Shown here: positions 33,858-50,861 of the stretch, piece by piece
Numbering within the stretch: the stretch's first letter is position 1
How the letters are laid out: each line of letters starts with the position of its first letter
Origin: Planctomycetota bacterium
GTDB taxonomy: Bacteria > Planctomycetota > UBA1135 > UBA2386
Length of the DNA stretch: 64,000 nucleotides
NCBI GenBank assembly: GCA_965223545.1
Contig: OZ245006.1
Location: 1,888,001-1,952,000, forward strand
Reading direction: 5' to 3'
The notes under the pieces: generated by a model
The model's database searches: none
The model's input: the letters and a program-made list of their open reading frames with translations, nothing else
Told to the model about the DNA's origin: nothing
Position numbers and translations under genes: made by a program

Positions 33858-36836
33858 GTGTCCTCTACACAGCCCCAGCGACCGCCGCCGATTCCCGTGA
33901 CTTCCCCACATGCCGAACGACTGGCAGAGCACGCCGCCTTCGTGCAACGACTGGCACGGCAGCTCGTCGCCGACCCGGACCTGGCCGACGACGTCGCGCA
34001 GGAGACGCTGACCGCGGCCCTCGAACGGGCGCCCTCCGACCGCGCGGCACTGCCAGCGTGGCTCGGCGTGATCGCGCGCCACCGCGCCAGCAACGCCCGC
34101 CGCGCCGCCGCCCGCCGCGCGCGGCACGAGCGCGCCGCGGCGAAGCCCGAGGGCGACGCCGCCGCGACCGACGTGTTCGATCGACTCGAGGTGCAGCAGA
34201 CGCTGCTCGCGCAAGTGCGCGCGCTGCGCGAGCCCTACCGCACCGCGATCTGGCTGCGCTATTTCGACGACCTACCGCCGCGCGCGATCGCGCGCCGCCT
34301 CGGCCTTCCCGTCAAGACAGTGAAGACCCACCTCTACCGCGGCCTCGACGCTCTGCGCCACAGCCTCGACCGCCGGTGCGGCGGCGACCGGAGCCGGTGG
34401 GTCGCGGCCCTGATTCCACTGCACCAGAACGCGCTGGCCGCGGTCAGCATCCCCGGCGGAGCATTGCTCGTGAAGAAGACCCTCATCGTGGCCGCGGCAG
34501 CGGCCATCGCCCTCACCGGCTGGCTGACCCTCGGCGGCGGTGAGCCCCAGACCATCCCAGCCTCCCCGGGCACGGTGACCCCCGCGCAGGGAGCGGCGCG
34601 GACTCGGGACGCGACTTCCGAAGCGATCGCGTCCGCCGCGCCGCACCGCTCGGCGGCGGTGCCCACCGCCGCGCGCACCGGCAGCCTGCGCGTGCGGCTG
34701 CGGTGGACCGGCACGCAGGGCCCGGCCGCCGACGTCGGCGTCACCGCGTACGGCAGCGCGGACCACGGGTCGCGCCGCGCCCGCCGCGCGACGCGCACCG
34801 ACGCGCGCGGCGTCGCGGTGTTCGCCGCGATGCCCGCCGGTGACCTGACGCTGTGGTTGGACCGCGGCCATCGCTTCGGCGGCCTCGAGGTGGTGGCCGG
34901 CGAAGACCGCGAGATCGAGCTCGAAGTCCCGGCGGGCACCACCATCGCGGGGCGCGCCACGGCGCCCGACGGCAGCCCGGTGCCGGGTGCCGAGATTTGG
35001 GCACACCGCCACCACCCGGGCTTCTACGCCTCCGGTGTGATCGCGCGCACCGCCGCCGACGGTAGCTTCACCGTCGAGGGGGTGGAGGCGCGCACCGAGA
35101 TCGGCGCCTGGGCGCCCGGCTTCACTCCGTCGGTGCTGGTCGAGCCCAGCGCGCTGCCCGAGGACGCGCGGGGCCGGCGCCAGGTCGACCTCCGCCTCGG
35201 TGAAACGGGCGGCCGCGTCGCCGGCCGAGTTCTCGACGCCGACCGCCGGCCGGTTGCCGGCGCGGTGGTGAAGATCGGCTCCCGCGGCGGACACATCGTC
35301 GATCTCGACGACGGTCTGCGGGCCACGGCCACGCGGCCCATGCTGTTGACGACGGATGCCGCCGGCGCGTTCGCGACGTCTGGCGACCTGCCGCTCGGCT
35401 CCCATCCGGTGGCGGCAATGGCGCCGGAATCGCCGATTTGGTCGGGCGACATCATCGTTCGCGCAAACGCAACCGCCGACCTGGAGATCGTGCTGCGACG
35501 TCCAGTGCGGATCACCGGCAGAGTGCTCGACCTCGAGGGCGCTCCGGTTGCCGACGCCAAGGTCGTCGCCGCCGTCGAAGTCGGAGGCGGTTGGTACTTC
35601 GAGACCTTCCCGCCAGCCACGGCGAAGAGTGATACCACCGGGCACTACGTCCTCGAGCTGGTCGCCCCGGGCGACATCGAGCTCAACGCGTCCGTCGCCC
35701 GCAAGCCGAGCCTGGGCAAGGCACAGACCCGGCTGCAGGCCACCGACGGCGCGTCGATCACCCTCGACCTAGTGCTCGATCCCGGCGCCACGATCGATGG
35801 CACCGTGTTCGATCGCGAAGGCGACCCGCTCGGCGGCTGGAGAGTGCACACGGCAAACGACGGCCGCGTCTATCCGCGTCAGGCAGAGACCGCCGCCGAC
35901 GGCACCTTCCGCCTGGCCAATCTCGAGCCCGATCACGCCTACATCGTCCGGGTCAGTGCACCGGGTGATCCGCCGGTGCCGGCACGCGCCGAACGGCGGG
36001 GCGTGCGGCCGTCGGCCACGGCTCTCCAGTTCGTCATCGAAGATGCGTCCGTGCCCGACGCCGGCGTGCGCGGCCAGTTGGTCGGCAGCGAAGGCCGCCC
36101 ACCGGCCAACGTGCAGCTCACCTACTATCCCGAGGGGAGCAACATGGGCGGCTTTCTCACCGTCGACCCCGAAGACGGAACGTTCGAGAAGACCTCGCTG
36201 CGTCCCGGGACGTATCGGCTGCGCGCGCTGCGCGGTGGGCAGATGGTGTACGAGAGCCCACCGCTCGAGCTCAGCTCCGGCGAAGTAACCGACGCCGGCA
36301 CTCTGCGGCTGGCGACGGGCGGTCGCGTCGAGCTGTCGGTGACCGGCATCGACGACGCGCAGCGGAGTGCGTTGTCGCTGCGCATGGATCGACCGGGTCA
36401 CGGCACCGAGACACTCGATCTGCGCGACGCAGTGTTCGTCTCACGCGAGCTCTTGCCCGGGACGTGGAGTCTGCGCGCGGGCGGCGAGCGCTGGTGCGTG
36501 TCGCCGGCAGAGATCGAAGTGCCCGCGGGACGGACCGCGAGCATCTCGGTCACCGCGCACGCCGCGCGCGAGGTGCGGGTCGAGTGCACGCTGCCGGGCG
36601 CCGGCTGGCGCACGCTGCACTACGAGGTGCGGGATGACGAGCAGACGCTCTTCCGTCGCGGCACGCATCGGGAATCCGCGCAAGCGGAGCCCGAGCACGC
36701 ACAGGTGCTGTACGGACTGGCGCTGCCGGACGGGACCTTCACGCTGCGCGCTTGGACCGACGCGGGGCTGCAGGGAGAGCTGCGGTTGACGGTCGGCGGC
36801 ACCGCGCCACCGCGGCACCGCCTCGTCCTTCGCTGA
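33858..36836 (+). CDS. ECF sigma factor fused via a TM helix to carboxypeptidase-regulatory-like repeats
   Basis: N-terminal sigma2/4 (LADDVAQET...WL; LREPYRTAIWLRYFDDL...IARRLGLPVKTVKTHLYRGL), TM TLIVAAAAAIALTGWL, then repeated G.V.D..G.PV.GA.V...T..DG.F units. Confidence 0.85.
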   Translation: MSSTQPQRPPPIPVTSPHAERLAEHAAFVQRLARQLVADPDLADDVAQETLTAALERAPSDRAALPAWLGVIARHRASNARRAAARRARHERAAAKPEGDAAATDVFDRLEVQQTLLAQVRALREPYRTAIWLRYFDDLPPRAIARRLGLPVKTVKTHLYRGLDALRHSLDRRCGGDRSRWVAALIPLHQNALAAVSIPGGALLVKKTLIVAAAAAIALTGWLTLGGGEPQTIPASPGTVTPAQGAARTRDATSEAIASAAPHRSAAVPTAARTGSLRVRLRWTGTQGPAADVGVTAYGSADHGSRRARRATRTDARGVAVFAAMPAGDLTLWLDRGHRFGGLEVVAGEDREIELEVPAGTTIAGRATAPDGSPVPGAEIWAHRHHPGFYASGVIARTAADGSFTVEGVEARTEIGAWAPGFTPSVLVEPSALPEDARGRRQVDLRLGETGGRVAGRVLDADRRPVAGAVVKIGSRGGHIVDLDDGLRATATRPMLLTTDAAGAFATSGDLPLGSHPVAAMAPESPIWSGDIIVRANATADLEIVLRRPVRITGRVLDLEGAPVADAKVVAAVEVGGGWYFETFPPATAKSDTTGHYVLELVAPGDIELNASVARKPSLGKAQTRLQATDGASITLDLVLDPGATIDGTVFDREGDPLGGWRVHTANDGRVYPRQAETAADGTFRLANLEPDHAYIVRVSAPGDPPVPARAERRGVRPSATALQFVIEDASVPDAGVRGQLVGSEGRPPANVQLTYYPEGSNMGGFLTVDPEDGTFEKTSLRPGTYRLRALRGGQMVYESPPLELSSGEVTDAGTLRLATGGRVELSVTGIDDAQRSALSLRMDRPGHGTETLDLRDAVFVSRELLPGTWSLRAGGERWCVSPAEIEVPAGRTASISVTAHAAREVRVECTLPGAGWRTLHYEVRDDEQTLFRRGTHRESAQAEPEHAQVLYGLALPDGTFTLRAWTDAGLQGELRLTVGGTAPPRHRLVLR

Positions 36837-36889
36837 GCGCCCCCCGCAGGCAGTTGTGCAGCGGCCGCTCCGGTGCTGCAATCCACCCT

Positions 36890-39712
36890 GTGGACCAGCG
36901 CGACGCCGAGACTCTGTCCGCGGGCGGTGACAGCCTCGACGACCTCGCCGCGGAGTGCGTCGCGCTGTACGAACAAGGCGGCGACACCGCCGTCGACGCC
37001 TTCTGCGAGCTCCATCCGGCGCACGCGAGCGAGATCCGCCAGCGCATGGCCACTCTGCGCGACCTCGGTCTGCTGGACATCGCCCGCGCCGAGACCGCGT
37101 TCCCCGAACGGTTTGGCGACTTTCGCCTACTCGAGCAGCTCGGTGGCGGTGGCATGGGCGTGGTCTACCGCGCCGAGCAGATGTCGCTCGGCCGCACGGT
37201 CGCCCTGAAGCTGGTGCGCCCGGACCGGCTGTTCTTCGAGGGTGCGCGCGAACGCTTCCGCCGCGAGATCGAGACGGTTGCCCAGCTGCAGCATCCCGGC
37301 ATCGTGCCGGTGTACGGCGCCGGCGTCGCCGGCGACCTGCCCTACTTCGCGATGGAGCTGGTGCGGGGGTGCTCGCTGGACGAGGTCATCGTCGGCTGCG
37401 CGCGCCAACCGCGCCCCACCGCGCGTGATTTGTACGCCGCGGTGTGCGAGGCCAGCGGCGTCGAGTTGGCGGAGACTCCCGAGCTGTTCGCCGGCAGCTG
37501 GGAGGAATCTGCGCTGCGCATCGCGCGCGCGATCGGCGAGGCGCTGCAACACGCCCACGACCGCGGCGTGGTGCACCGCGACGTCAAGCCGTCCAACGTG
37601 ATGATCACGCCAGAGGGCCGGGTCATGCTGGTCGACTTCGGTCTGGCCAGCTCGACCACTTCGCGGCAGCTGACGCACAGCGGCGCCGTCCTCGGTTCAC
37701 CACACTACATGGCGCCGGAGCAGGCCCGCGGCGAGTCCGACAGCCTCGGCCCGCCGGTCGACGTCTATGCGCTCGGCGTGACGCTCTACGAGCTGTTGAC
37801 TCGGCGCCGCGCGTTTACCGGTGGCACCACCGCCCGCGTGCTGACCGCGATCGAACGCGGCGACGTCCGGCCGCCCCGCATCCACGACCCGACGCTCTCG
37901 TGGGAGGCGCAGACGATCTGCCTGACGGCGATGGACATCGAGCCGGACCGCCGCTACCCGACCGCGGGCGCGATGGCGGCCGACCTCGCGGCTGCGCTGG
38001 CGCACCGACCCATCTCCGCCCGTCCGGCGAGCCGCGCGCGCCGGCTGCGGCGCTGGTGTCAACGGCACCCGGCCCGCGCGGTCGGCGCCGCGCTGGGCTC
38101 GTTCGTGCTCGTCGTCGGCCCGACCACGTTCGCGATCCAACAGCTGGTGGCCAACCGGCGCATCGGCACCGAGGCACGTATCGCGGACGCCAACCTGGTC
38201 ACCGCGCTGCGCGCGGTCGACGCCATGCTGACGCGGGTCGGCGCCAGCGAGCTGCGGCACGTGCCCCAGCTGACGCCAGTGCGCCAGCAGCTGCTGCAGG
38301 ACGCGACGACGCTGTTCGCCGAGCTCGAGGGGCGCGGCCGCGCCGGCGACGACGTCGCCCGGGGGGCCTGCGGAGCGCAGCTCAAGCTGGCGATGCTGCA
38401 GAGCGAGCTGGGCAACTACGACGACGCCGAAGCGGCGTTCGACCGTCTGCAGCCGACGATGGAGCGGCTGGCCACATCAGAGAAACAGGCCGACGTGCTG
38501 CGGCTTGCCGATCTGATGCATCAGCGCGGCATCCTCGCGCGGCACCGTTCGCGGCTCGAAGACGCCGAACGCGCGCAACAGCGCGCCGACGCACTGCTGG
38601 CAACCCTACCGACGAGCGCCGAGGCAGTCACTGCCGCCCGCATCAAGGTCGGTGCCGAGCGCGCCCACATCGCCACGCTGCGCGGCGACGTCGCTGCCGC
38701 CGAAGCCACCCTCGACGACGCCGCCCAGCACGGCGCCACGGCAGCGGCTTGGACCGAGCAGCCGGCAGTCGCCGCCGCACTGGCGAGAGTGTGGAATCGC
38801 CGCGGCGACCTGATGCTCGATCGCGAACGTTATCCCGAGGCCATCGACGCCTACGAACGCGGCGCCGCGATCATCCGCGCGCTGCTGGCCGCTACTCCCG
38901 ACAGTCGCGACCTCCGGACGCTGCTCGCCTCGCAGCTGCACAACCTCGCCATCGCCGCGCGCGAAGCCGGCGATCCGGAAACGGCGCTCGAGCACATTCG
39001 CCAATCCCACGCCGAACGGCGACAGCTGGTGCGCGAGTTCCCGGCCGGTCCCGACTACCGCTACGAGCTCGCCAAGATCTCGATCGTGCTCGCCAACACC
39101 CTGCGCGACAGTGGCGACCTCGACGGCATGCACGCGCACTACAGCGAGGCGGCGCTGATCGCCGAGGAGCTCGCCGCGGTGTATCCCGGCAACCCCAACT
39201 ACATCGCCACGCGCGGCTTCGCGCGACAGGGGTTGGGGTTTGTCGCCGCCATGCGCGGCGACTTCGCCACCGCCGCCGACGCGCTGCAGGGATCTGCCGA
39301 TGACCTGGCCGAGACCGCGGGTCGGCACGGCCCGGATTCGGTCCAACACCGTGGGCGCGCGATGAGCTTCTACGGCTTGATGCTCGCGCTGAAGGACCTT
39401 CGAGCGCCGAACGCCAACGAGCGGGGCGCGGCCGCGGCGGACGCCGCCATCGCGCACGGCCTGGCGCGCTGGCCGGACTTCGAGCTTGCGGTGAGCTTGC
39501 TCCGACGGGCAGCCGCGGCCGCCATGGACGACGAGTCTCTCACTCCTTCCGATCGCACGGCGCGCCGCAACGATTACACGGCACGCGCGGCGGCGGCACT
39601 GCGCGCCGCCGCCGACGCCGGCCACCACGACGCGGTGCTGCGCGCGCTCGACGACGCGTCGTTCTCGGCGGCGCCGTACCGCGCGCTGAAGAGCGAGCTG
39701 GAGGGGCGCTGA
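36890..39712 (+). CDS. Ser/Thr kinase with TM segment and TPR C-terminus
   Basis: LGGGGMGVVY, VALK, HRDVKPSNVM, DFGLA, GSPHYMAPEQ, DVYALG. Confidence 0.93.
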   Translation: MDQRDAETLSAGGDSLDDLAAECVALYEQGGDTAVDAFCELHPAHASEIRQRMATLRDLGLLDIARAETAFPERFGDFRLLEQLGGGGMGVVYRAEQMSLGRTVALKLVRPDRLFFEGARERFRREIETVAQLQHPGIVPVYGAGVAGDLPYFAMELVRGCSLDEVIVGCARQPRPTARDLYAAVCEASGVELAETPELFAGSWEESALRIARAIGEALQHAHDRGVVHRDVKPSNVMITPEGRVMLVDFGLASSTTSRQLTHSGAVLGSPHYMAPEQARGESDSLGPPVDVYALGVTLYELLTRRRAFTGGTTARVLTAIERGDVRPPRIHDPTLSWEAQTICLTAMDIEPDRRYPTAGAMAADLAAALAHRPISARPASRARRLRRWCQRHPARAVGAALGSFVLVVGPTTFAIQQLVANRRIGTEARIADANLVTALRAVDAMLTRVGASELRHVPQLTPVRQQLLQDATTLFAELEGRGRAGDDVARGACGAQLKLAMLQSELGNYDDAEAAFDRLQPTMERLATSEKQADVLRLADLMHQRGILARHRSRLEDAERAQQRADALLATLPTSAEAVTAARIKVGAERAHIATLRGDVAAAEATLDDAAQHGATAAAWTEQPAVAAALARVWNRRGDLMLDRERYPEAIDAYERGAAIIRALLAATPDSRDLRTLLASQLHNLAIAAREAGDPETALEHIRQSHAERRQLVREFPAGPDYRYELAKISIVLANTLRDSGDLDGMHAHYSEAALIAEELAAVYPGNPNYIATRGFARQGLGFVAAMRGDFATAADALQGSADDLAETAGRHGPDSVQHRGRAMSFYGLMLALKDLRAPNANERGAAAADAAIAHGLARWPDFELAVSLLRRAAAAAMDDESLTPSDRTARRNDYTARAAAALRAAADAGHHDAVLRALDDASFSAAPYRALKSELEGR
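39482..39597 (+). repeat. Copy 1 of a 116-bp inverted repeat (kinase 3' segment); copy 2 at 50746-50861
   Basis: Ungapped hand alignment gives 94/116 identical nt and 31/38 identical aa (ELAVSLLRRAAA.AM.DESLTPSDR.ARR.DYT.R). Confidence 0.85.
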
Positions 39713-40083
39713 GACAGTTCACCGGCTCTGCTCACCGCTGCCGAACACGGCGAGCGCCGCGGTGAGAAGCCAGCTCTCGAAGCCGCCGAGGTCCTGATCT
39801 CGGATCCCGGCGTTGGTCAAGGTGGCGATCCGGCGCGCAGGCGCTGCCCGTACGGAAGCCGCGTCGCCATCGACGTCACCGCCGTGGGCGATCATACGCG
39901 CACCGACGTCCTCCGTGTCAACGACGGAACACCGAGCCCGTACGCCCAGTCCGTCGTTCTCGTGAACCGGTAGAACGGAGTCTGCATCAGGCGGTCTGCG
40001 TAGTCCGCCGCGGACCACAGGCTCCGTGTCCTCGCCCATCAGGCCACGCCGAACCGTCGCTAGCCACACCCATATGCCCCCCC

Positions 40084-41133
40084 CTAGGCGTCGCCAGGTC
40101 TTGAACTCGCTGAGCTGGTTGATCGTGGTCTCGACTCGGAGCACGCTGCCGGCCTTGTCGTACATCTTGACCGAGTTTGCCTTGGCGGAGCGCTTGACGC
40201 GCACTCCCTCGATCCGGCGCTTGTAGTCCGTGGTTGCCTCGCCGCGGTAGCTGACCGATGGCGACTTGGCGAGGAACCGCAGGACGTCGGGGCTGTGGAA
40301 GTCGGTGACGGCGTGCCGAACCAGCGACGGATAGCACCGGGCCAAGGTCGCCGCGTCGGCGAACATGACGTCGGTGGCCCACTCGGCCTGGTGAACGGTC
40401 CAGTAGAAGTCCGCTCGCGCGGCGTTGGCGACTGCGGCCAGTGCGGGGTTCGCGCGGTGGACCAGATTGCCGAGCACCGCGCTCCAGTCGAGGCGGAGCA
40501 TTCGGCCCATGATCTCCTGGACACGCTCGGGGCTGGCGAAGGACGGAAAGCAGTTGTCGGCGCGGGTGTGGACGAGTCGTTCGCGCGCGAGCTGACGACC
40601 GAGCCACTCGCGGCCGTTGATGCAGATCTGGACCGTGTACGGCATCCAGGTCTGGACACGGACGCAACAGAGGCCAAGCTCGCGATCGAGGAAGTAGTGG
40701 TAGTGGTGCAGACACTTCGTGACGCGCCGCCGTACTGCCGTACTTGCTGCGGATGCTTGTGCTCGCGGGAGCGGCGCACCTGCCAGCTCGAGCATGGTTC
40801 GACGATGGAGAGCAGGCAGATCGCTCCGGAGCGGATCGGGCGCTCGGCCAAGATCTTCTTGGCGACGTCCTCCTTCCGGATCCGGCTGGACTCGAGCTAG
40901 CGGGCCGGAAGCTGCAGCCGCTCGGCGACGGACGTTGCGCCAGCGCGGATCATGCCGGTCACGGACTCGACGAACTTGCCGAAGTCCTTGAGCAGCACGC
41001 CTTGCGAAGACAAGAACGACCGGACGCCGCTCTCGTGGCAGAGTGGCAGCAGGTGGCCCCGGAAGACAAGGCGGTCGAAACCACGCAGGATGCCGGTGAT
41101 CTTCGCGGCGTGACGGTGTACGAAACGTTGCAC
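40084..41133 (-). pseudogene. Decayed gene of a probable mobile-element (transposase/Rep-like) protein
   Basis: GGAG plus GTG 41133: QRFVHRHAAKITGILRGFDRLVFRG... In-frame TAG at 40897-40899, frameshift near 40720-40740, then KCLHHYHYFLD..GL..VRVQTWMPY..QICINGREWL...NSVKMYDKAGSVLRVETTIN, truncated near 40085. Confidence 0.65.
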
Positions 41134-41491
41134 AACTTCCGCTCCTCGACCTCGGCTGTTGTGTTGACAACTTCGGTCGTACCGAGGACCGGGGCCGTAT
41201 TCACGCTTCAAGCGTCCGGCAGCCATCGCCGTGATCGTGTGCTCGCCGCTCTCCCGCGGTCAGCCCGACGCCATCGCCCACCGCGGCGTTCCCAGTTGTG
41301 TTGCGGGCGTCAGCCCGCGATAGGTGACAGAAGAAGACCTGGGGTAGCCCAGCACCGCCTGAACATCGCAAGACGCCATTCCCCGGTCATCGGCGCGCGC
41401 GAGCGTGCACCATTTCCGCCGTGACGCAATCGTCAGCGCCGCCGGCTACGTCGGCTTGACGGTGCGGGGGACCTTCGCTATTAAGGGAAGA

Positions 41492-42766
41492 GTGGAGTAC
41501 CAGAATCACGCGTTCCTCCAGCACAGTCCGTCGACGGGAGTACGGCAGCCGAAGAAGGGCGTCCAGGCAAAGGATGTCGACTTGCGTTCGATTCCGCCTG
41601 TCCCGGTGACCAACTTGGATATCGATATAACCGAGGGGTGCAACCTCGCCTGCTCATATTGTTTCAAAGGCGAGTTGGAGGGCAATCACATGTCCCTCGA
41701 AACGCTCAAGCAATGCTACGACTGGCTATCGGCAGCCTCTAGAGGTGCAGAGCAAATCAACTTCAACTTCATGGGTGGCGAGCCCACCATGAGGTGGAAG
41801 GAGATTCGAGCGTTTGTGCCCTGGGCTCGCCGTCGTTCGTTGGCGGAGGGCAAGCTGGCGACGTTTAGCATGACCTCGAACCTGACGTTGTGGACCGACG
41901 AGATACGGGACTTTGTTGACAAGTATGGGTTCGGTATCCTTATGTCGATTGACGGGTGCCCCGACGTTCAGGATGCTCAGCGGCCGGCCAAGAACGGCCG
42001 CCCCATGTCGGAGACGGTCGAGCGCTGGGCCAAGTCGTTGTTGAGGACGCGCCAACGGTCGACAGCGCGGATGACCTTGTCGCCACACTACGTAGGCCGA
42101 TTCAGAGAGAGCGTAGCATACTTAGTAGAAATTGGCTTTTCGGAGGTCACCGTCGGGACGGCGGACTACGGGTCATGGTCCATGTTGGACCTAGCGACTT
42201 TTCGAGAGCAGTTGGCCGGAATCGTGGAGGACATCGGCCAGTCGTATACAGGCGCAAAGCCCTTTCAGATGACGGTTCTGAAATACCTGGTTGACCATGT
42301 AGTTCGGCACCGAAGAGAAGGGAAGCCGGAGCGTATTGAGCGGCGAGATAGCCCATGTGGTGCCGGGAAGGGGTATCTGATGGTCGACCACACTGGCGAC
42401 ATCTGGCCCTGCCACCGCTTCGATGGTGCTGACCAGGATGTAGGGGCTGAGGGGTCCATGCGAATGGGCAACATCTACCAGCCCGGGTTTCATACGAGTC
42501 TACAGCAGGCGTTCTTGGAGTTTGACCACTCCAAGAAGAGGAAAGAGTCGTGTGATACATGTCCGGTCGACCCGGTCTGTGGCGGATTCTGCCCCGCGGC
42601 GAATCTCCAAGACTCAGGCAACATCTACACGCCGCATGACGGTTACTGCGTGCTATCGCAGGGCTTCTACCGGGCAGCTGACCATCTCTACTCCCTAGCA
42701 GCGGGCGGTGGGTTCTTGGACAGATTGTTGAAGGATTGCGAGGGGACAGACAGCGATGGACGCTAG
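41492..42766 (+). CDS. Radical SAM/SPASM-domain peptide or protein maturase
   Basis: CNLACSYC (CxxxCxxC), FMGGEP, SIDG, and a full SPASM domain (PCGAGKGYLMVDHTGDIWPCHRF...CDTCPVDPVCGGFCPAAN...YC). Probable GTG start at 41492 after AAGGGA; the ORF is open from 41405. Confidence 0.93.
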   Translation: MEYQNHAFLQHSPSTGVRQPKKGVQAKDVDLRSIPPVPVTNLDIDITEGCNLACSYCFKGELEGNHMSLETLKQCYDWLSAASRGAEQINFNFMGGEPTMRWKEIRAFVPWARRRSLAEGKLATFSMTSNLTLWTDEIRDFVDKYGFGILMSIDGCPDVQDAQRPAKNGRPMSETVERWAKSLLRTRQRSTARMTLSPHYVGRFRESVAYLVEIGFSEVTVGTADYGSWSMLDLATFREQLAGIVEDIGQSYTGAKPFQMTVLKYLVDHVVRHRREGKPERIERRDSPCGAGKGYLMVDHTGDIWPCHRFDGADQDVGAEGSMRMGNIYQPGFHTSLQQAFLEFDHSKKRKESCDTCPVDPVCGGFCPAANLQDSGNIYTPHDGYCVLSQGFYRAADHLYSLAAGGGFLDRLLKDCEGTDSDGR

Positions 42767-43679
42767 CGCAGCGGAGCGGGAGTTGCGTGGCCCTTACGGC
42801 GTGCTCACCCAGGAACGCGATGGGCTAGTGGTTCGAAGGCGGCCGCGGCCCGTGCTACCGAAGACTTGGGTCGGTGTGGTCGACGCGTCCGGTTCCGACG
42901 CGGTCCAACTCGCGAAGGAGTGGGAGTCGCGCGCGTTACGACCGATGTCTAGCGTTGCGTTAGAGGTGACTTGTCATGACAAGCAGGACCTCGAGAGGTT
43001 GCCCGAACTCTTGCAAGGGGTCGCGGGGGTCGTGGTGTCAGTCCCGGCGATTTGGTTGGTTGAGCCATCAGCTGAAGAGTGGCAGTTCGCGGAATCGGTG
43101 CAACGGCTGCGAATAGTGGATGAGGGCCTGGAAGGCAACGACCTACTGAGAGCCGGGGAACGCTACGCGGGCCTGGAGGCTGAGGGCTTGCTGGTGGAGG
43201 TAGAATTGCGCCATGATTACCCCTCGGATTTGCTCAGCCGCGTAGAGTTCTGGTCGACTGCGGGGAGAGCCAGCCCCGTGCATCTGAGTGCAGTCGGAGA
43301 TGGCGGTATGAGCCAGGATGACCGTGTCGAAGAGTATTTGAGGGCTGGTGCACTCTTGGGGAACGCCGTCTTGCGGAGTGAGCCGTTCAGGAGCATACTG
43401 GCTCCGATGTTGGAGGAGCGGGAGTATCTGCATGCGGCTCCAGCGTCGGCAGCGCGCTGGACGCTCCGCAGGGAGCGCTGTCCAGCCTGTCCGTGGCGGG
43501 CGTTCTGTCTCGTCACACGGGTTGGACCAATGTTGGTGGACCAAGATGTCGCGATGGAGTGTGCTTTGCGGAAGGCCGTCTTGGCGTCCTGCTTGACCGC
43601 GCGCGCCGCCGAAGGCGAACGAGAACGCAGCGCCAGTGCAAGGAGTTCAGAGAAATGGCGAGACTACTTGCTGGTCTAG
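42756..43679 (+). CDS. Hypothetical protein with C-terminal half-SPASM-like Cys cluster (degenerate radical SAM-like partner)
   Basis: Overlaps the radical SAM stop. Alternating beta/alpha pattern; C-terminal RERCPACPWRAFC-x17-C; no CxxxCxxC. Confidence 0.6.
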   Translation: MDASAAERELRGPYGVLTQERDGLVVRRRPRPVLPKTWVGVVDASGSDAVQLAKEWESRALRPMSSVALEVTCHDKQDLERLPELLQGVAGVVVSVPAIWLVEPSAEEWQFAESVQRLRIVDEGLEGNDLLRAGERYAGLEAEGLLVEVELRHDYPSDLLSRVEFWSTAGRASPVHLSAVGDGGMSQDDRVEEYLRAGALLGNAVLRSEPFRSILAPMLEEREYLHAAPASAARWTLRRERCPACPWRAFCLVTRVGPMLVDQDVAMECALRKAVLASCLTARAAEGERERSASARSSEKWRDYLLV

Positions 43680-44893
43680 CCCTGCTGGTTGCTGGTCTAG
43701 CCCTGCTGGCAGTCATTTGGCTCGCTGCAGAGGCGTCGACCGGGCTGAGGCCCCCTGACGGTGGCCCGGCCAACAAGTCGGACAGTGTGCTCGTCCGTGA
43801 TTCGGAGCGAGTGACATCGAGGTTGCGCATCGAAGCACCAGCGCCCACGCTGAGTGTGCTCGCTCAAGATGGTCGCTTGGTAGAGGGGGCGGAGGTCGTG
43901 GTCGCAGGAGCGCGCGGCCAGGAGGTGAAGGGGAGGCGGTACGTTATTGGAGCGGAGGTCGGCGATACTGCACCCGTTGACATAGTTGCTCGAGGCTTTT
44001 GGCCTTGGAGTCGGGAGCTGCGTATCGAGCAGGAGAACACTGTCCGCTTGACACCAAGGAACTGGTTAGAGCTGTGTGTGGTCGATGCTGTTTCGACGGT
44101 CCCTGTGCCTACGTTTGAAGTGCTACCGACAGATGTTGTTGTGAAGCAAGAACACCCACAGGTCGGTTGCGTGTGGTTGCGTGCGAGTGGTCGCGGCGGG
44201 TTTGCGGTGGGCGTCGCCGCACCAGGATACCCATTCCAGGAGGTCTGGGTCAAGGGCCACAACAGGAGAGCGGTGGTGGAGCTCCTGGCATCCTGTTCGT
44301 TGGCTGGGGTTGTGCGAAGCCGGGATGGCGCTCCGTTGAGCGGTGTTGAGGTGGTGGACCCTAGGCTTGGACTGCGCGGCGAACCACTGGGAGTAACAGC
44401 CGAGGACGGCAGCTTCTCTGTCGAAGTCGCGCCAGTGGATGGCGCTGTGAACCTGCAGCTGCGGAAAGAGGGCTGTGTGCGGTTGGAGTTTCGGCGCCGC
44501 GGCGCTCCGGGTGGGAGGCAATGGTGTGGCGAGGTGGAGGTCCCCGAGGCCGCAATAGTGTTTGGTGTGGTGACGGGCGCGGACGGTCATCCTGTCGTGG
44601 GCGCGGGAATCGTTGTTGCACAAGGTTCCTTGATTAGGAGCGGTGTGCGCGGGCTGACAACACACGAGAAAAGGTGTCGTAAGCGGCTCCCGCGGGGCTG
44701 GCGCGTCGTCAGAGACGTTGAGCGACTTTTGGCCGTTACAAGCAAGGACGGCAGTTACCGGGTCGACGGAGTCGTGCCCGGGACGGTGCGGCAGAGGGTC
44801 TGGGTGACCGCTGGCGACAAAACTGTTGGAAAGACGATACCGGAAGTTGCCACTGGCGGCGCACGGTATCAGTGTGACATTTCGTTGCGGTAG
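43655..44893 (+). CDS. Membrane-anchored carboxypeptidase-regulatory-like (beta-sandwich repeat) protein
   Basis: N-terminal TM LLAGLALLVAGLALLAVIWL; repeats GVVRSRDGAPLSGVEV...TAEDGSF and GVVTGADGHPVVGAGI...TSKDGSYRV. Confidence 0.7.
   Translation: MARLLAGLALLVAGLALLAVIWLAAEASTGLRPPDGGPANKSDSVLVRDSERVTSRLRIEAPAPTLSVLAQDGRLVEGAEVVVAGARGQEVKGRRYVIGAEVGDTAPVDIVARGFWPWSRELRIEQENTVRLTPRNWLELCVVDAVSTVPVPTFEVLPTDVVVKQEHPQVGCVWLRASGRGGFAVGVAAPGYPFQEVWVKGHNRRAVVELLASCSLAGVVRSRDGAPLSGVEVVDPRLGLRGEPLGVTAEDGSFSVEVAPVDGAVNLQLRKEGCVRLEFRRRGAPGGRQWCGEVEVPEAAIVFGVVTGADGHPVVGAGIVVAQGSLIRSGVRGLTTHEKRCRKRLPRGWRVVRDVERLLAVTSKDGSYRVDGVVPGTVRQRVWVTAGDKTVGKTIPEVATGGARYQCDISLR
43668..43709 (+). repeat. Perfect 21-bp tandem duplication extending the TM helix
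   Basis: TTGCTGGTCTAGCCCTGCTGG twice (AGLALL twice). Confidence 0.9.
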
Positions 44894-44906: not shown

Positions 44907-45590
44907 ATGAATCAGGAAGAACTGGTCGAGGCTGTGACCGAACTGGTAACCCGCCGAACGGCGATGCGGACGGCAGTCATGGGGCTGGCCGCAGTGTTGG
45001 GGCGGGCGGCGAGTGCTGCCGTTCCGACGTCGTCATCCACATTCTCTACAGAATGCACGGGGGCCAACACGTGTAGCGCCACACAGCCCAACGAATGCGT
45101 GAGCGGCGAGAACAACACTTGCTCAGGTGTCAACACCTGCACCAGCTATAACACCTGTGAAGGTGCTGGGACGACGAACGACTGCTCGAGCGACAACACG
45201 TGCACCAACAGCAACTGGTGCGACCTAGGAGCTAGCAACAACTGCGAGGTTCAGACTTCGGGCAATTCGTGTTCGACGACCGGGGACGTTGGCTCGTCCA
45301 ACACCTGCACTCCTGTTCAGGCGCAGAACAACTGCACGCCTGGAATTGGCGACGATACAGGTAACGGGTGCACGGGAGCAATGAGCAACAAGTGCTCCGC
45401 TGGCTCGAGCAACAACTGCCAGAGCATAGGTTCCGGTCGGAACGAGTGTTCCGGGGGCTCGGAATCGAACACGTGTGTTGGTATCGGTGCGAACAACAAT
45501 TGTGAGTCAGCGTCGACCAATACATGTGGGACCGGTGGCTCGCAGATGAACACTTGCTTGAAAAGCGCGTCGAACACCGTTGGGCCGTAA
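44907..45590 (+). CDS. Tat-signal Cys/Asn-rich protein with 20 N-x-C repeats; putative radical SAM substrate
   Basis: GAGGAG RBS 8 nt upstream; VTRRTAM...h-region...AASA signal; 21 Cys in the mature part, 20 of them as N-x-C. Confidence 0.85.
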   Translation: MNQEELVEAVTELVTRRTAMRTAVMGLAAVLGRAASAAVPTSSSTFSTECTGANTCSATQPNECVSGENNTCSGVNTCTSYNTCEGAGTTNDCSSDNTCTNSNWCDLGASNNCEVQTSGNSCSTTGDVGSSNTCTPVQAQNNCTPGIGDDTGNGCTGAMSNKCSAGSSNNCQSIGSGRNECSGGSESNTCVGIGANNNCESASTNTCGTGGSQMNTCLKSASNTVGP

Positions 45591-46291
45591 GGTCATGCAA
45601 ACCTTCTGCTAGTGGGGCTGGTCAGAAATTCGCATCATAGATATCCAGCTACTTGGCAGCGATGTCGTCGCAGTAACGCTGGAGAGATCGCAGGATCTGG
45701 TCTGCTGTCTTGGACCATACGTACGGGGAGGGATCGTCGTTGTGCTCATCGAGGAAGCTGCGGATGTCTTGTTCGAGGGCACGGGTCGAGCGGTGCACGC
45801 CTCGCTTGAGCTTTCGGCGAGAGAGCAGTGAGAAGAAGCTCTCCGCCACGTTCAACCAAGAAGACTTGGTTGGCGTGAAGTGAAGTTGGAATCGAGGGTG
45901 CCGCAGCAACCAACGTTTCACATCGGCAGTCTTGTGTCTTGTGTGTCGCGTAGTTGTCCAAGATGACGTGGATGTCCAGGTGCGCGGGCACGTTGCTGTC
46001 AATTTCGTCGAGGAAGCGAATGAACTCCTTAGCCCGGTGCTTCCTGAAGCACTTCCCGATCACGCGGCCCGTCGCCACGTCGAGTGCTGCGAACAGAGTC
46101 GTCGTACCATGTCGGATGTAGCGGTCGGTTTGCCGAGCATTGACTGTGGGTCGCATCGGCAAGAGCGGCTGTAACTGTTCCGGCACGCACGTTCTTCGCG
46201 CCGCGCCGAACCGGCGCATGAACAGAGATTTCCGCCACCGGGTGTCGGCACCGGCGCCGGCCACGACGGTGACCGTCCGTAGCTGGCTGGG

Positions 46292-47914
46292 CTACGAGCC
46301 CACGAACAACTGACGCACGATGTTGTCGATCGCGTTGTCGGCTTTGGCGATCTGGGCACGCCGTTGCCGTCCCAGCATCCAGCCACGCGGAGTCAGCTGA
46401 CCGACCTGGGAGGCAGGAGTGGTCGAGATCGCGTGAAGCACATCCCGCAGGTAGAGCAGCGGGCTGATGCCATGCTCTCGACACGACTGGACGAGACTCA
46501 AGAGGATGAGTGAAGCTTGGGTGCCGTCCTCGGATCCGAAGAAGAGCCAGTTCTTCTTGCCGATCACGACTGCACGCAGAGCACGCTCGCAACCGTTGTT
46601 CGAGATCTCGCGGATGCGGCCATCGGTCAGGAAGCGCTCGAGAGCAGGCCACTGGTTGAGCCCGTAGCGAACTCCCTCCATGAGCGGCCCCTTCGGGAGG
46701 CTCGGCTGGTCGATGTGCATCTGCTCGAGCCAAGCCTTGAGCGCGTTCGCAATCGGGCGAGAGTCGCGCTGACGGACCTCGACCAGCTCGTCATCCGTGA
46801 AGGGTCGACCATCTTTGCCCTTCTTGGCGACGCTCTCGATCGCGAACAGCTTGCCGATCCAGCCCAGAGCCTTCTCCGTGGTCGAGTCGCCGAGCTTCCG
46901 CGCATTCACGAAGTAGCGACGAAGGTGTGCCCAGCATCCGATGCGCGCGATGCTGGTTGGATCGAGATCGCTGTAGCAGTCATGGCCATCGCACTGCAAC
47001 CGACCACCGCGGTCGCCCAAGACCTCTTTGGGGCTGCCGCGATTGCGTGAGTCCGTAGCGGTGTAGAAAACCCCGGCGTGTTGATCGCGCCACGCCCACA
47101 CGTGGATCTTTTTCTGTCCGGGGTTTCGGCCGTTGCGCTGGTTGCCGTAGGTGTCGTCCACCTGCAGGACGGAGGTGTCGAGGCTCTCGAGAACTTGCTC
47201 GACATGGGCATCGAACACGGGCTTCAGGAGCTCGGCACAGCGCATCGCCGAAGTGCATAGGACGCTACGCGACAGGCTGAGCCCCTCGGCTGCGTACTTC
47301 TTCTCCAACCGCGCGTACGGCATGTGGTTGGCAAAGCGGTCGAAGATGATCTGCGCAAGGAAGCCGGGGCCGAGGATGCTTTTGTCGAGGACTCGGGTGG
47401 GGCCCGCGGCGACGACGACGTAGCCCTGACAGGTCGCGCAGGAGTACTTCTTCCTCACGATCTGGTGGACGAACGAGAGCTCGATGCGCTCGAGCTCCTG
47501 CGAGACCTCTTCGCCGAACTCCCGACGGCCGTTGCCGCAGCAAGGGCACAGCAGGTCCTCGCCCTCGATCGTGAATACGGAGCGTTGCCGCGGAAGATGC
47601 TCTGGGAAGTCCTTGCGTCGCTTGGTGCGCTTGCGCTTGTGCTCGGGGACGGTGATCTCTTCGGCCTCTTCTTCGGCCGCCTTGGCGTCGGCTCCCGCTT
47701 CCTCTACAGCCTCTTGCGCGAACGGCAGCAGCTGTCGCGGGTCGATGTAGCGGCTCTTCTCCGAGCGGCGACCGAACAGCATGCGCTGAAGGTCGGACAT
47801 CTGCGACTTCAGCGACGAGATCTGCGTGAGCAGATCCGGGATCAAGGCACGTAGCTGCGCCTCATCCAGTGCGTCGACGTTGACCGTTTGCTTGCGACCG
47901 CCCATCGCGACCAT
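46292..47914 (-). CDS. tnpC: IS66 DDE transposase TnpC
   Basis: LFGRRSEK, CPCCG zinc ribbon, KYSCATC, LQVDDT, LQCDG, CWAHLRRYF, ISNNGCERALR...GKKNWLFFGS. Confidence 0.95.
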   Translation of the reverse strand: MVAMGGRKQTVNVDALDEAQLRALIPDLLTQISSLKSQMSDLQRMLFGRRSEKSRYIDPRQLLPFAQEAVEEAGADAKAAEEEAEEITVPEHKRKRTKRRKDFPEHLPRQRSVFTIEGEDLLCPCCGNGRREFGEEVSQELERIELSFVHQIVRKKYSCATCQGYVVVAAGPTRVLDKSILGPGFLAQIIFDRFANHMPYARLEKKYAAEGLSLSRSVLCTSAMRCAELLKPVFDAHVEQVLESLDTSVLQVDDTYGNQRNGRNPGQKKIHVWAWRDQHAGVFYTATDSRNRGSPKEVLGDRGGRLQCDGHDCYSDLDPTSIARIGCWAHLRRYFVNARKLGDSTTEKALGWIGKLFAIESVAKKGKDGRPFTDDELVEVRQRDSRPIANALKAWLEQMHIDQPSLPKGPLMEGVRYGLNQWPALERFLTDGRIREISNNGCERALRAVVIGKKNWLFFGSEDGTQASLILLSLVQSCREHGISPLLYLRDVLHAISTTPASQVGQLTPRGWMLGRQRRAQIAKADNAIDNIVRQLFVGS

Positions 47915-48275
47915 TGATACGAACAGAGCGCGAGTAATGCCGACGAAACTTGGCGGATTTCAGATCAATCCCTTCGAGCAACATCACGAGCTGTGCGCGC
48001 TCGACTTCGACATGTGTGGCGTCGCCGCTCTTGGGACGCCAACTGTCAAACGTGCCGCGCTCGAGTCGCTTCATCGAGATCCAGAAACCGTTGCGATCCC
48101 AGAACAAGATCTTCACGCGATCGCGACGCCGGTTGAAGAACGCGAAGACGTCGCCATCGAACGGATCCCGATGAAAGCTGTGCTGGACGATCGCGCTCAG
48201 CCCGTCGAACGACTTCCTCATGTCGGTTGGCTCGTTGGCGACGTACACGCGCACGCCCGCTGGGAAGGCCAGCAT
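47862..48275 (-). CDS. tnpB: IS66 accessory protein TnpB
   Basis: PTDMRKSFDGL...FFNRRRDRVKILFWDRNGFW...KRLERGTF...LLEGIDL. Confidence 0.95.
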   Translation of the reverse strand: MLAFPAGVRVYVANEPTDMRKSFDGLSAIVQHSFHRDPFDGDVFAFFNRRRDRVKILFWDRNGFWISMKRLERGTFDSWRPKSGDATHVEVERAQLVMLLEGIDLKSAKFRRHYSRSVRINGRDGRSQANGQRRRTG

Positions 48276-48613
48276 CAGTCGGCCACAGAGTCCAGCAAGC
48301 GGTACGCGATGTCTTGAGCAATCGCGCCCTCGAACTCCGCGACGACGCCCGCCGGGAACCTGAGCCGCACAAGGCTCGAGCTCTCGCCCTCGTCGTTACT
48401 CGTCCGGCCCCGACCATCGCGATCGACGACTCGGACCTCCGCGAACCCAGTGCTCTCCTCCGATCGCAACCGATGCGACCACCAACTCAGCGTCCCGATC
48501 GGGATACCGAACCGCTCCGAGAGCGCACGCAGCGAAAACCCTTCCTGCTCGCGGAGCGCGAGAACCTGCCGGATCTCACGGCGACGACTTGCTCGCTTCG
48601 ACATGGCCGCCAT
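48275..48613 (-). CDS. tnpA: IS66 TnpA-like HTH protein
   Basis: GFSLRALSERFGIPIGTLSWWSHRL HTH plus FAEVRV; first ORF inside the IR. Confidence 0.8.
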   Translation of the reverse strand: MAAMSKRASRRREIRQVLALREQEGFSLRALSERFGIPIGTLSWWSHRLRSEESTGFAEVRVVDRDGRGRTSNDEGESSSLVRLRFPAGVVAEFEGAIAQDIAYRLLDSVAD

Positions 48614-48785
48614 CGTGGCGAACGACTCGAGCGTTTGCAGACGTGGTTGCCGGAACAGTTACGAGCGGCTGCGCTCGATCCCGCACCAACGGCCTTCTAG
48701 GCCCAGAACCAGAGTTCGTGTCACCAGCGTAAGCGTCCGGTGAAGGCATCTCGAAAGCCGCTGGCGGATCGGCAGGATGCGGCGG

Positions 48786-49121
48786 ATGACGAAGAGAATC
48801 CCCGTGTGGGCTCGAGCGGAGATGCGCGAGCTGCTTCAAGAGCTGGACACCTCAGGCGTGACGTTCGCCGAGTTCGCGCGCCGGCGTGGTGTCAACGCAA
48901 ACCGCATCTACTGGGCGAGGCGGCAAGCCCGAGCTGCGGCGGCGCCGACCTCCGCGCAGGCGATGTCGGACTTCGGGGAGCTGGTGGTCGCCGCAGACCC
49001 GTCTCCGCGACGAGCAGCGGCCATTGAGTTTCGGGTGCCGTCGGGCGCGGTTGTCGATGTGCAGCGCGACTTCGACGAAGCGACGCTCCGACGGCTGCTC
49101 GGAGTCCTGCTGTCATGCTGA
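48786..49121 (+). CDS. tnpA: IS66 TnpA-like HTH protein
   Basis: SGVTFAEFARRRGV...YWAR...FDEATLRRLL. Confidence 0.8.
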   Translation: MTKRIPVWARAEMRELLQELDTSGVTFAEFARRRGVNANRIYWARRQARAAAAPTSAQAMSDFGELVVAADPSPRRAAAIEFRVPSGAVVDVQRDFDEATLRRLLGVLLSC

Positions 49122-49477
49122 GCTTTCCGCCCTCGCCGCTAGTCAAGATCTTCGTTTGCCGGAAGCCGGTGGACATGAGGAAGAGCTTCAGCGGTCTGTC
49201 GGGTGCGGTCATCGACGTGGTCGACCACGACCCGCAATCTGGTCACCTCTTCCTCTTCTTCAACAAGCGCCGGACCATGATGAAGGCACTGGTGTGGGAG
49301 CCGTCTGGTTACTGGGTGCTGGCGAAGCGACTTACGAGCGGCCGCTTTCAGGTCTTCGATCGCTCGGCTGAGAACAGCAGCCGATTCGAGATTGCGAGTA
49401 GCGATCTCGCGCTCTTGTTGGACGGCATCGACCTCCGTGGCGCGCGCCGCAGAGAAGTTCGCGATCAGGTGCTGTAA
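49115..49477 (+). CDS. tnpB: IS66 accessory protein TnpB
   Basis: PVDMRKSFSGL...DPQSGHLFLFFNKRR...KRL..GRF...LLDGIDL. Confidence 0.92.
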   Translation: MLSFPPSPLVKIFVCRKPVDMRKSFSGLSGAVIDVVDHDPQSGHLFLFFNKRRTMMKALVWEPSGYWVLAKRLTSGRFQVFDRSAENSSRFEIASSDLALLLDGIDLRGARRREVRDQVL

Positions 49478-49525
49478 CGACTGGCCGCGACTTGATCCGT
49501 CTCCGGTTTGTGTTAATCAGAGGGA

Positions 49526-50215
49526 GTGACGCCGCTCACGGACCTCGACGAAGCCAACTCGACGATCGTCAAGCTGCGCGCCGAGATCGAGCGCCTTCGC
49601 GAGCAGCTCGAACTGATGAAGCAGCGCACGTTCGGACGGCGCCGCGAGCACATCGATCCGAACCAACTGCTGCTGTTCGAGGCCGGCGTCGCGCAGCTCG
49701 AAGAGCTGCAGAAGCAGGCGCAGGAAGCGGAGCAGTCGAGCGAACTCGCGAAGCCTGACCCGAAGAAGAAGCGGAAGCGCGGTCACGGTCGCGGTCAGTT
49801 CGCCGAGCACCTGGATCGGCATGTCGTCGAGGTCGACGTGCCGGAAGCGGAGCGCTGCTGCCCCGAGTGCGGCGAGGCCATGCACTGCATCGGAACTGAC
49901 GTCACCGAGCGTGGCCACATCATCCCAGCGCGGTTGGTCGTGAAGCGCTACGTGCGCAACAAGTACGCGTGCCCGCACGGGCACAGGATGAAGATGGCGT
50001 CGATGCCTGCCGGCGTCGTCGAGAAGGCGAAGTACGAGCCCTCCGTCTACGCGCATCTCGTCACAGCGAAGTACGGCGACCACCTGCCGCTGAACCGCCT
50101 GCAGGGGATCTTCCGCCGCTTCGGGGCGCACGTCCCGAAGTAGACCATGTGGGACATGCTGGCGCGCTTCGACGAGATCGCGGCGCGTCCGATCCTGGCC
50201 GGCCAGTCCTGCTGA
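49526..50215 (+). pseudogene. tnpC: Truncated IS66 TnpC
   Basis: FGRRRE, CPECG, KYACP, KYGDHLPLNR, then TAG at 50141-50143. The frame resumes (TMWDML) before the deletion that reaches the right IR. Confidence 0.88.
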
Positions 50216-50424
50216 AACGCGTCGGCGGTCGCTTTTCAACCGCTGGCCGCCATGGCGTCACCGGACGCTTACTCACCAGCCGCCATCTGGCGATTGCTTG
50301 AGCTGAGATAGGGAGGCCGCGCCAGCGGCGACGACTGCAGCGATGAGGCGACGTCCGGCAGTCGTGACCCGGTAGCGATGCGTGCCCCGAACCTTGTCGA
50401 TGACGCCGTGAGCACAGAGCAGAC

Positions 50425-50750
50425 GCTGCAGTCGAGTGACCCGTGCGCTGATGCAGGAGGTTGGCGACTTCCGCGGGCGTCAGCTGTAGCCGCTGGGCCT
50501 CGTCGAGAATGCGCGCGATGAACGACGCGCATGCGGGATCCGTGCCGGCGCCGGTCTGCCTGCGCAGCGCGACCGTACCGCGCGCGCCCCGGACCGCGAC
50601 CAGCCCGAGCTCGGCGTAGGCGCGGCGGATGGTGTGGAAGTTGACACCCCAGCGCTGCGCGGCATCCCGCGCCGACGGCAGCCTCTCGCCCTGCACCAGC
50701 TGGCCGGTGGCGAGCTGATAACGGATCGCTTCGACGATCTGGTCCGCCAC
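50425..50750 (-). pseudogene. GntR-family regulator, N-terminal wHTH half
   Basis: VADQIVEAIRYQLATGQLVQGERLPSARDAAQRWGVNFHTIRRAYAEL...RGT; fused in frame to a kinase-tail fragment. Confidence 0.8.
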
Positions 50751-50861
50751 TGCCGTGCGTGTTGTGTAGTCGTCGCGGCGCGCCGCGCGGTCTGACGGCG
50801 TGAGGGACTCGTCTGCCATCGCGCCGGCCGCCGCCCGTCGGAGCAGGCTCACCGCCAGCTC
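50746..50861 (-). repeat. Copy 2 of the kinase 3' segment (inverted relative to 39482-39597)
   Basis: Encodes ELAVSLLRRAAAGAMADESLTPSDRAARRDDYTTRTAV on the minus strand. Confidence 0.85.

Follow-up and report, generated by a model that had tools for sequence, protein, structure and literature searches.

A conserved cysteine/asparagine offset in a planctomycetal repeat protein points to candidate in-line thioethers made by an adjacent radical SAM/SPASM enzyme

The locus considered here raises the question of which residues, if any, are joined in a protein whose cysteines and asparagines recur together but are displaced from each other by one unit, and whose gene shares a cassette with that of a radical S-adenosylmethionine (SAM) enzyme with a SPASM domain. 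It lies in a 64,000-nucleotide stretch of DNA from Planctomycetota bacterium (NCBI GenBank assembly GCA_965223545.1, contig OZ245006.1, positions 1,888,001 to 1,952,000 of the forward strand), here called the window, to which coordinates refer unless another sequence is named. Our answer, which we consider likely on the basis of sequence comparison, is that each cysteine sulfur is joined to the C-beta of the asparagine downstream of it, that these thioethers follow one another in line and are made in the cytoplasm, and that the product is then exported through the twin-arginine translocation (Tat) pathway. The register of the two residues, its conservation, the linkage of the genes and the motifs of the enzyme are observed; from these we infer that there is a bond and which carbon it uses, as well as the fold, export and role of the product. 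The features concerned are the following:

44907..45590, + strand: putative substrate gene P0001, 227 aa; an open reading frame with a twin-arginine-type signal, then 21 Cys/Asn units
44907..45017, + strand: predicted Tat signal, residues 1-37, with R16-R17, a hydrophobic stretch and an A-S-A cleavage site assigned by eye
45054..45575, + strand: repeat core, C50-N223; 21 proposed in-line rings spanning 4-10 residues, the linkage being putative
45054..45056, + strand: first cysteine, C50, with Thr and not Asn at -2
45573..45575, + strand: last asparagine, N223 (N-T-V), at +6 from C217 and with no Cys at +2
41405..42766, + strand: radical SAM/SPASM enzyme P0002, with CxxxCxxC and SPASM; start uncertain, GTG at 41492 being a candidate

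The repeat gene is preceded by a GAGGAG-type ribosome binding site, and its product has cysteines at residues 50, 56, 64, 72, 78, 84, 93, 99, 105, 113, 122, 134, 143, 155, 163, 171, 181, 190, 199, 207 and 217. A recount of their spacings (6,8,8,6,6,9,6,6,8,9,12,9,12,8,8,10,9,9,8,10) gave the same list as the original prediction, which had been made from the letters of the window, and its description of 21 cysteines, the first without Asn at -2 and the last asparagine without Cys, proved exact. All 20 of the non-first cysteines have Asn at -2, and in the proposed pairing one linker residue separates neighbouring rings. Among 110,375 six-frame stop-to-stop open reading frames (ORFs) of the genome, the window ORF has 20 N-x-C motifs and the runner-up only five, and such a density is therefore not attributable to chance. 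Assembly error is likewise excluded, since the gene shows 0 differences from contigs of two public runs (X1 and X4); these belong to one study, possibly including the source sample, and do not constitute an independent occurrence. The 227-residue protein has no match in Pfam or NCBIfam, and a promoter and terminator scan gave signal at or near chance level.

A homologue search with the single repeat-protein sequence returned no match, and a search of the ESM Atlas only matches under 0.9. The family was therefore reached through the enzyme, an alignment of which yielded 25 clade loci (L001-L014, L074-L084) and 128 control loci of distant enzymes; the named clade genomes belong to Planctomycetota, Phycisphaerales, Sumerlaeota and one unassigned bacterium. 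An ORF with at least five N-x-C motifs is present at 19 of the 25 clade loci vs none of the 128 control loci. Of the six clade loci that lack a precursor, five are short contigs (less than 4 kb); at the remaining one, L012, the enzyme copy is truncated (L012:10007-10918) and no precursor lies within 10 kb. Two precursor copies each are found in L011 and L013 (L011:12420-14726; L013:11125-14322), and in the L013 pair the N-terminal regions are identical and the cores divergent. A profile built from this locus set and run against 1.84 billion representatives matched 237 proteins with E values no higher than 0.001. The held-out set consists of 71 out of 150 distinct proteins examined and is defined by an RR signal, N-x-C at no less than 55% of Cys, a length under 450 aa and not duplicating the locus set; among the 79 rejects, three were duplicates and the rest failed the RR, N-x-C or length criterion. 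The held-out proteins come without genomic context and are mostly representatives of different 50% clusters. Three longer proteins (P0213, P0223 and P0239) carry blocks of N-x-C repeats without an RR signal by the filter, and are possible fused forms.

Pooled counts below refer to 92 proteins (21 locus precursors and the 71 held-out proteins), which have 5-37 units each. The partial protein of L083 was excluded from N-terminal and parity counts, signal-peptide Cys were removed by hand in L009, L014 and L082, Cys within 24 residues of RR were ignored in held-out proteins, and the L008 row of the precursor alignment lost its C-terminal 40 residues (trimmed at the wrong end). All p-values of the offset tests are inflated by kinship among the sequences.

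The offset seen in the window protein is conserved in this family. Asn stands at -2 of the first mature Cys in none of the 21 locus precursors (Asp in one) and in six of the 71 held-out proteins; at inner cysteines it does so in 398/448 (locus) and 1013/1119 (held-out) cases. The earlier characterization of N-x-C as invariant thus holds for the window protein but not for the family, in which about 90% of inner cysteines conform. At the other end of the repeat, Asn or Asp lies exactly +6 after the last Cys in 16/21 locus precursors and 22/63 scorable held-out tails (38/84 pooled), with backgrounds of 0.12 and 0.10, respectively (0.104 pooled). Over the broader range of +3 to +9, such a residue occurs in 21/22 locus tails (12.7 expected) and 53/66 held-out tails (31.3 expected), or 74/88 pooled vs 44.4 expected. 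The distance from inner Cys to Asn is also modal at +6 (216/408 locus; 349/1011 held-out), the same as the tail peak. Where locus intervals lack Asn/Asp at -2, Asn is found at +6/+7 of the upstream Cys in 22/32 (shuffle mean 7.7, p 2e-4). The offset at both ends means that the conserved unit opens with Cys and closes with Asn and one further residue; the original prediction had named conservation of the offset among homologues as a check on its pairing, and the offset is indeed conserved at both ends, in the locus and held-out sets alike.

These two ends bear directly on how the pairs could be drawn. If every Cys takes as its partner an Asn, Asp, His or Phe lying downstream, 53 of the 92 proteins have no unpaired Cys, 23 have one and 12 have two. 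A shortened form of the link made by the enzyme NxxcB, in which Cys closes a three-residue ring with the Asn two residues upstream (N-x-C), would exploit the most fixed spacing in the family (about 90%), and both upstream Asn acceptors (NxxcB) and three-residue rings are known; however, this pairing leaves the first Cys partnerless in 77/92 proteins and the conserved Asn/Asp after the last Cys, with its peak at +6, unexplained, and we regard it as very improbable. Nested or overlapping Cys-to-Asn thioethers that skip a unit in places might be suggested by the two close Cys with which 17/92 proteins begin and by the nested links of PapA (PMC9413430). Against them stand the one-unit offset at each end in most proteins and the 53/92 that pair fully in line, which leave such nesting hardly any likelihood.

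The enzyme has the cysteines of its CxxxCxxC motif at 79/83/86 and seven SPASM cysteines at 318/336/383/386/392/396/415, which are invariant in the clade except C383 (at least 90%). Its best family is PapB (NF047865: 211.8 bits, E 1.5e-62; cut-off 340 not reached), followed by QhpD (TIGR03906: 190.4 bits; cut-off 453 not reached), with lower scores for the nif11-like maturase (181 bits, cut-off 519), SCIFF (TIGR03974: 150, cut-off 425) and CrpC (TIGR04463: 53.7 bits, cut-off 525) families. The closest solved structure is CteB (PDB 5WGG; profile E 8e-48). The original prediction had drawn a comparison with PapB, and the adjacent enzyme is indeed nearest to PapB, QhpD and CteB. About 60 relatives at 50% identity or above form a tight group. 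The cassette would work like PapB, QhpD and CrpC, but by the cut-offs it is a member of none. The spacing of the seven SPASM cysteines matches that of CrpC (PMC13692751), and by analogy an iron site of the auxiliary cluster would remain open to a substrate thiolate. Six catalytic-proximity positions (PMC10288494), mapped by hand from the alignment, are F87, M123, T157, S181, H337 and R338, corresponding to F112, F152, T186, S210, H363 and Q364 of CteB, with four of the six identical. By this mapping the active site is CteB-like, as in ranthisynthases, which form non-alpha thioethers, although exceptions to the profile are known (GggB and QmpB). The median position of the first motif Cys among clade enzymes is residue 56 (motif found in 64/65 relatives), so early that most have no room for a RiPP recognition element (RRE; about 90 residues; RiPP, peptide synthesized ribosomally and modified post-translationally).

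Replacements of the register Asn are informative about the acceptor. The residue is Asn in 1399/1529 intervals; the 130 others include His 25 times (16x background), Asp 19 (2.9x), Phe 11 (9x), Glu five (1.0x) and Gln none, and Ser, Thr and Gly are depleted to 0.3-0.4 of background. Of the 63 intervals without any Asn, 40 are supplied with His, Asp or Phe. In all three a CH2 adjoins an sp2 centre, an arrangement that would suit abstraction of a C-beta hydrogen. The spectrum bears on whether Cys, in the same downstream direction, might instead be linked to another atom or residue, either as an alpha-thioether (sactionine) at Asn or to the neighbouring variable residue, with Asn serving for recognition. 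Such links would fit the offset equally well, sactisynthases with ranthi-like profiles are known (GggB and QmpB), and the position between N and C shows variation but disfavours Pro. The His/Asp/Phe replacements, on the other hand, point to the side-chain C-beta, and the nearest enzyme families are PapB, QhpD and CteB; we assign this alternative a small chance.

The mature Cys count is odd in 53/92 proteins, no different from chance (21 in the window copy). An all-disulfide product is therefore unlikely, and the argument first made from the odd count of a single protein gains from this random parity of the family. That extra cysteines form disulfide pairs was considered and dropped: the leftovers show no even bias, and N-terminal extras are not associated with a later partner (Fisher p 0.39). 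An AlphaFold model of the repeat protein, of low confidence (mean pLDDT, predicted local distance difference test, 65; pTM, predicted template modelling score, 0.48), is a beta-solenoid in which most N-x-C motifs, and also the final N-T-V, each form a short strand. A Foldseek search with it found no match at E below 1, and the folds that it matches are solenoids of a generic kind, namely CsgA (Z 13.7, root-mean-square deviation (rmsd) 8.6, 178 aligned), UspA1 (Z 13.5, rmsd 7.2, 127 aligned) and a bacterial antifreeze protein (Z 10.1, rmsd 2.7, 157 aligned). Between N and C, Pro (0.2%) and Gly (2%) are scarce, which is consistent with a beta-strand, and Asn displaced from -2 is most often at -4, with strand-like parity. 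The solenoid that had been offered as an alternative to thioethers therefore agrees with the low-confidence model as a fold but not as an exclusive alternative, since a stapled solenoid fits both; solenoid and thioethers would be reconciled by links that each staple one turn. The likeness to beetle antifreeze proteins found no specific support; the low-confidence model gave generic solenoid matches only. Tenebrio-type antifreeze proteins are Cys/Thr-rich small-residue repeats forming 12-residue disulfide coils with a Thr-x-Thr face and a cross-coil link joining residues six apart; in contrast to their regular coils, the repeat protein has irregular spacing, random Cys parity and a linked maturase.

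A solenoid could also arise with no enzymatic cross-link of the repeat, as an Asn ladder with disulfides formed after export or with metal, the enzyme acting elsewhere. The modelled strand per N-x-C (including the last N-T-V), the generic solenoid matches and the -4 position of displaced Asn are all in keeping with such a ladder. Ser and Thr, however, are the usual Asn-ladder substitutes and are depleted at the register position, and the odd Cys counts, the irregular loop lengths (6-14) and the tight linkage to a thioether-type enzyme clade speak against it as well; we consider it improbable. For CrpA, the predicted beta-helix was reported by the authors to be inconsistent with the real links (PMC13692751).

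In the mechanism that we favour, the adjacent radical SAM/SPASM enzyme would have the repeat protein as its dedicated substrate. In the cytoplasm, auxiliary cluster I would bind a substrate Cys thiolate at its open site, and a hydrogen would be taken from C-beta of the next downstream register Asn to give a Cys-S-C-beta(Asn) thioether, with a modal spacing of C-x5-N and a range of 4-10 in the window copy. Repeated 21 times in line, the reaction would yield a map running from C50-N54 to C217-N223, in which N-x-C would be the junction of two rings, probably a short beta-strand, rather than a ring. The stapled chain would then fold, probably into a beta-solenoid-like rod, and exit via Tat, signal peptidase would cut off the signal that serves as leader, and a pseudo-radical-SAM partner (see below) would probably help to hold the substrate. 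Precedents are known: PapB joins Cys to an Asp that lies downstream at a distance of 0-6 residues (PMC9413430), Cys is consistently ahead of its acceptor in CrpA (PMC13692751), and NxxcB uses Asn C-beta as acceptor (PMC8326336, PMC9389541). The pairing of each Cys with the Asn of the next unit, as first suggested in the original prediction, thus appears to be the best account of the two-end offset, the enzyme kinship and the random parity. Our tentative guess at the role of the product is a redox-proof extracytoplasmic scaffold, for binding or structure, with variable loops, because the register is constant, the loops vary, there are 5-37 units and no protease, transporter or immunity genes recur.

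Several points weigh against this proposal. The offset fixes the phase of the functional repeat unit, not a covalent bond, and non-covalent packing of Cys and Asn in a solenoid would yield the same phase; N223 lies in the last strand of the AlphaFold model. The +6/+7 result for exceptional intervals was not replicated in held-out proteins (12/79 vs shuffle mean 8.4, p 0.11), and 18/71 held-out tails lack Asn/Asp at +3..+9 (five are under four residues and probably truncated). NxxcB, the sole characterized Asn-acceptor thioether enzyme that we encountered, runs the other way (Cys23 to Asn20). An N-x-C ring is not excluded by ring strain, because three-residue rings exist, as in CteA Cys32-Thr34 (PMC8326336), and PapB accepts n=1 (PMC9413430). 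In GggB and QmpB a ranthi-like profile goes together with the formation of alpha-thioethers (PMC10288494). With respect to the replacements, His codons are one base from Asn codons, and PapB forms no cross-link to a His acceptor (D23H; PMC10739248). Lastly, the signal of the window copy (TRRTAM) is a weak Tat motif, without a match to TIGR01409 or PF10518.

Because that signal matches neither Tat hidden Markov model (HMM), Tat export of the window copy rests on the family pattern. R16 and R17 are invariant in the 21-row precursor alignment, and RR followed by a hydrophobic stretch is present in 21/21 complete precursors, window copy included. The residue at RR+3 is Phe in 63/92 family members (held-out members having been selected for RR) and Ala in the window copy, TIGR01409 gives weak matches in 3/21 precursors (best E 0.028), and the host genome encodes TatC. 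The signal probably doubles as leader. No recurring protease or transporter was seen among the compared cassette neighbours or 60 Pfam-scanned neighbour ORFs, a pattern consistent with signal peptidase cutting off the leader. A candidate shared leader motif upstream of RR (P-R-V-L-R-R-like, at few loci) occurred in 5/71 held-out proteins only and was dropped.

Comparison with characterized systems helps to place the cassette. The freyrasin ranthipeptide system PapB/PapA (NF047865) is alike in its enzyme family, in linking Cys to a downstream acceptor and in tolerating varied ring size. It differs from the present case in using Asp rather than Asn and in the scale of its substrate, a peptide with six CX3D motifs, as opposed to a protein of about 20 units in which CX3D is absent and the modal span is 6; a twin-arginine signal, a partner gene and the lack of room for an RRE in most clade enzymes further set the cassette apart. 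QhpD likewise installs several thioethers in the cytoplasm on QhpC, the quinohemoprotein amine dehydrogenase gamma subunit, a chain that ends in the periplasm (PMC7876137), but there the links are Cys-to-Asp/Glu and only three, a quinone cofactor is made, and export is by an ATP-binding cassette transporter after a dedicated protease, genes for which were not seen in this cassette; nor were qhp genes found among the cassette neighbours scanned. CrpC/CrpA of Methanococcus voltae (PMC13692751) shares a protein-sized Cys-repeat substrate, a seven-Cys SPASM domain, a predicted beta-helix and ranthionine-type links with Cys before the acceptor; it differs in its 17-residue repeats, short CxxQ/D-type motifs and an enzyme with an RRE. 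The main text of that paper, in the portions available, mentions neither Tat nor Asn, and its supplements include one unrelated Phycisphaerales protein. The bond itself, Cys sulfur to Asn C-beta, is that of the streptococcal beta-thioether RiPP system NxxcB/NxxcA, although there a short peptide bears a single ring with Asn upstream (Asn20-Cys23, N-x-x-C), whereas here the motif is N-x-C and the proposed order Cys then Asn. CteB, which makes the SCIFF product thermocellin, offers the closest solved enzyme structure and a top structural match of the partner model too, but the thioether that it forms is a gamma one, to Thr, in a peptide of 45 residues.

Most of what is known of radical-SAM thioether chemistry concerns short peptides, with few validated cases at protein scale, namely QhpC (three links) and CrpA (2026), and one survey excluded precursor genes over 600 bp (PMC10288494). 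No paper on the cassette was found in the literature searched, most subscription journals being outside its coverage. If our reading is true, there would be about 20 in-line rings per protein, with Cys-first Asn acceptors, variable ring size and export of a folded product, and the conserved offset would allow links to be predicted residue by residue. An enzyme that staples Cys to Asn repeatedly over 4-10 residues would also be a tool to replace disulfides.

The repeat gene is the last of four on the same strand, after the enzyme and these two:

42756..43679, + strand: partner P0003, 307 aa; TIM-barrel (triosephosphate isomerase-type) model, no CxxxCxxC, CxxCx5C kept; N-terminus shorter than most homologues
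43655..44893, + strand: CarboxypepD_reg-domain protein, secreted or membrane-anchored; ATG at 43655, domain match; membership of the system uncertain

The partner gene stands beside the enzyme in 20/26 loci including the window (17 HMM-building rows and three weaker matches), and for an HMM built without the window copy that copy was the sole match listed in the genome (E 0.003). CxxxCxxC is found in 0/17 partners and CxxCx5C in 10/17, and no Pfam or NCBIfam name applies. The partner model matches CteB (Z 10.6, rmsd 4.4, 222 aligned), TigE (Z 10.5, rmsd 5.0, 232 aligned) and ChlB (Z 10.4, rmsd 4.7, 236 aligned), and resembles anSME too; the longest alignments are to SPASM enzymes, with scores tied with other TIM barrels. 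Since a profile comparison with the enzyme is weak (probability 5.6%, only the CxxCx5C stretch aligned), radical-SAM ancestry rests on the structure model, from which the partner is a probable pseudo-radical-SAM protein, a relative without catalytic activity, with a possible role in binding the substrate. Its homologues' N-termini are RRE-like by eye only, with no Pfam match. The fuller proposal of a two-component maturase (active enzyme plus pseudo-radical-SAM partner) with a Tat signal as leader, which would install 10-37 in-line Cys-to-C-beta thioethers on Asn and on some His and Phe, is doubtful taken as a whole. If true, it would define a disulfide-free class of stapled solenoid proteins including Cys-His and Cys-Phe C-beta links, of which no description was found in the literature searched.

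CarboxypepD_reg-related proteins lie near four other cassettes. An exact 21-nt tandem duplication (43668-43709) falls in the signal/anchor region of the CarboxypepD_reg protein and spans the partner stop codon. An NfuA-type iron-sulfur (Fe-S) carrier (Fe-S_biosyn plus NifU) is encoded in three cassettes (L008:4921-5754, L011:9033-9725, L075:2196-2846), and a B12-binding radical SAM gene lies about 1 kb past the partner at L001:13857-15500, where further modification of the product is possible.

The surroundings of the four-gene run include the following:

39719..41170, - strand: 483-aa ORF left of the cassette, no Pfam match, presumably transposase-like
45649..50272, no strand assigned: insertion sequences right of the cassette (DDE_3 fragment, IS66, second element)
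45649-46002, - strand: DDE_3 transposase fragment
46171-48662: IS66, with terminal inverted repeats
48729-50272: second inverted-repeat-bounded element

The run sits between insertion sequences and has a GC content of 0.58-0.63 (third-position GC 0.64-0.72), as compared with 0.72-0.73 (third-position 0.87) in the sigma factor and kinase genes next to it, and a close enzyme relative was found in 2/41 related genomes searched, the window genome included. The cassette is best read as horizontally acquired. A 116-nt inverted repeat (39482-39597 / 50746-50861, 81% complementary) flanks the island, its left copy near the kinase 3' end, hinting at rearrangement at the island borders. Contig depth in the public runs jumps from 46171, as for a multi-copy element. 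At 33858-39712, an extracytoplasmic function (ECF) sigma factor fused to several CarboxypepD_reg domains is followed by a Ser/Thr kinase with tetratricopeptide (TPR) repeats, and kinase or sigma genes of similar type are found close to several related cassettes. Elsewhere in the same genome, G000:C1:5504046-5504426 (- strand) encodes a small secreted protein in which a (H)ACKG-N-C-G-GGC-like Cys repeat occurs five times.
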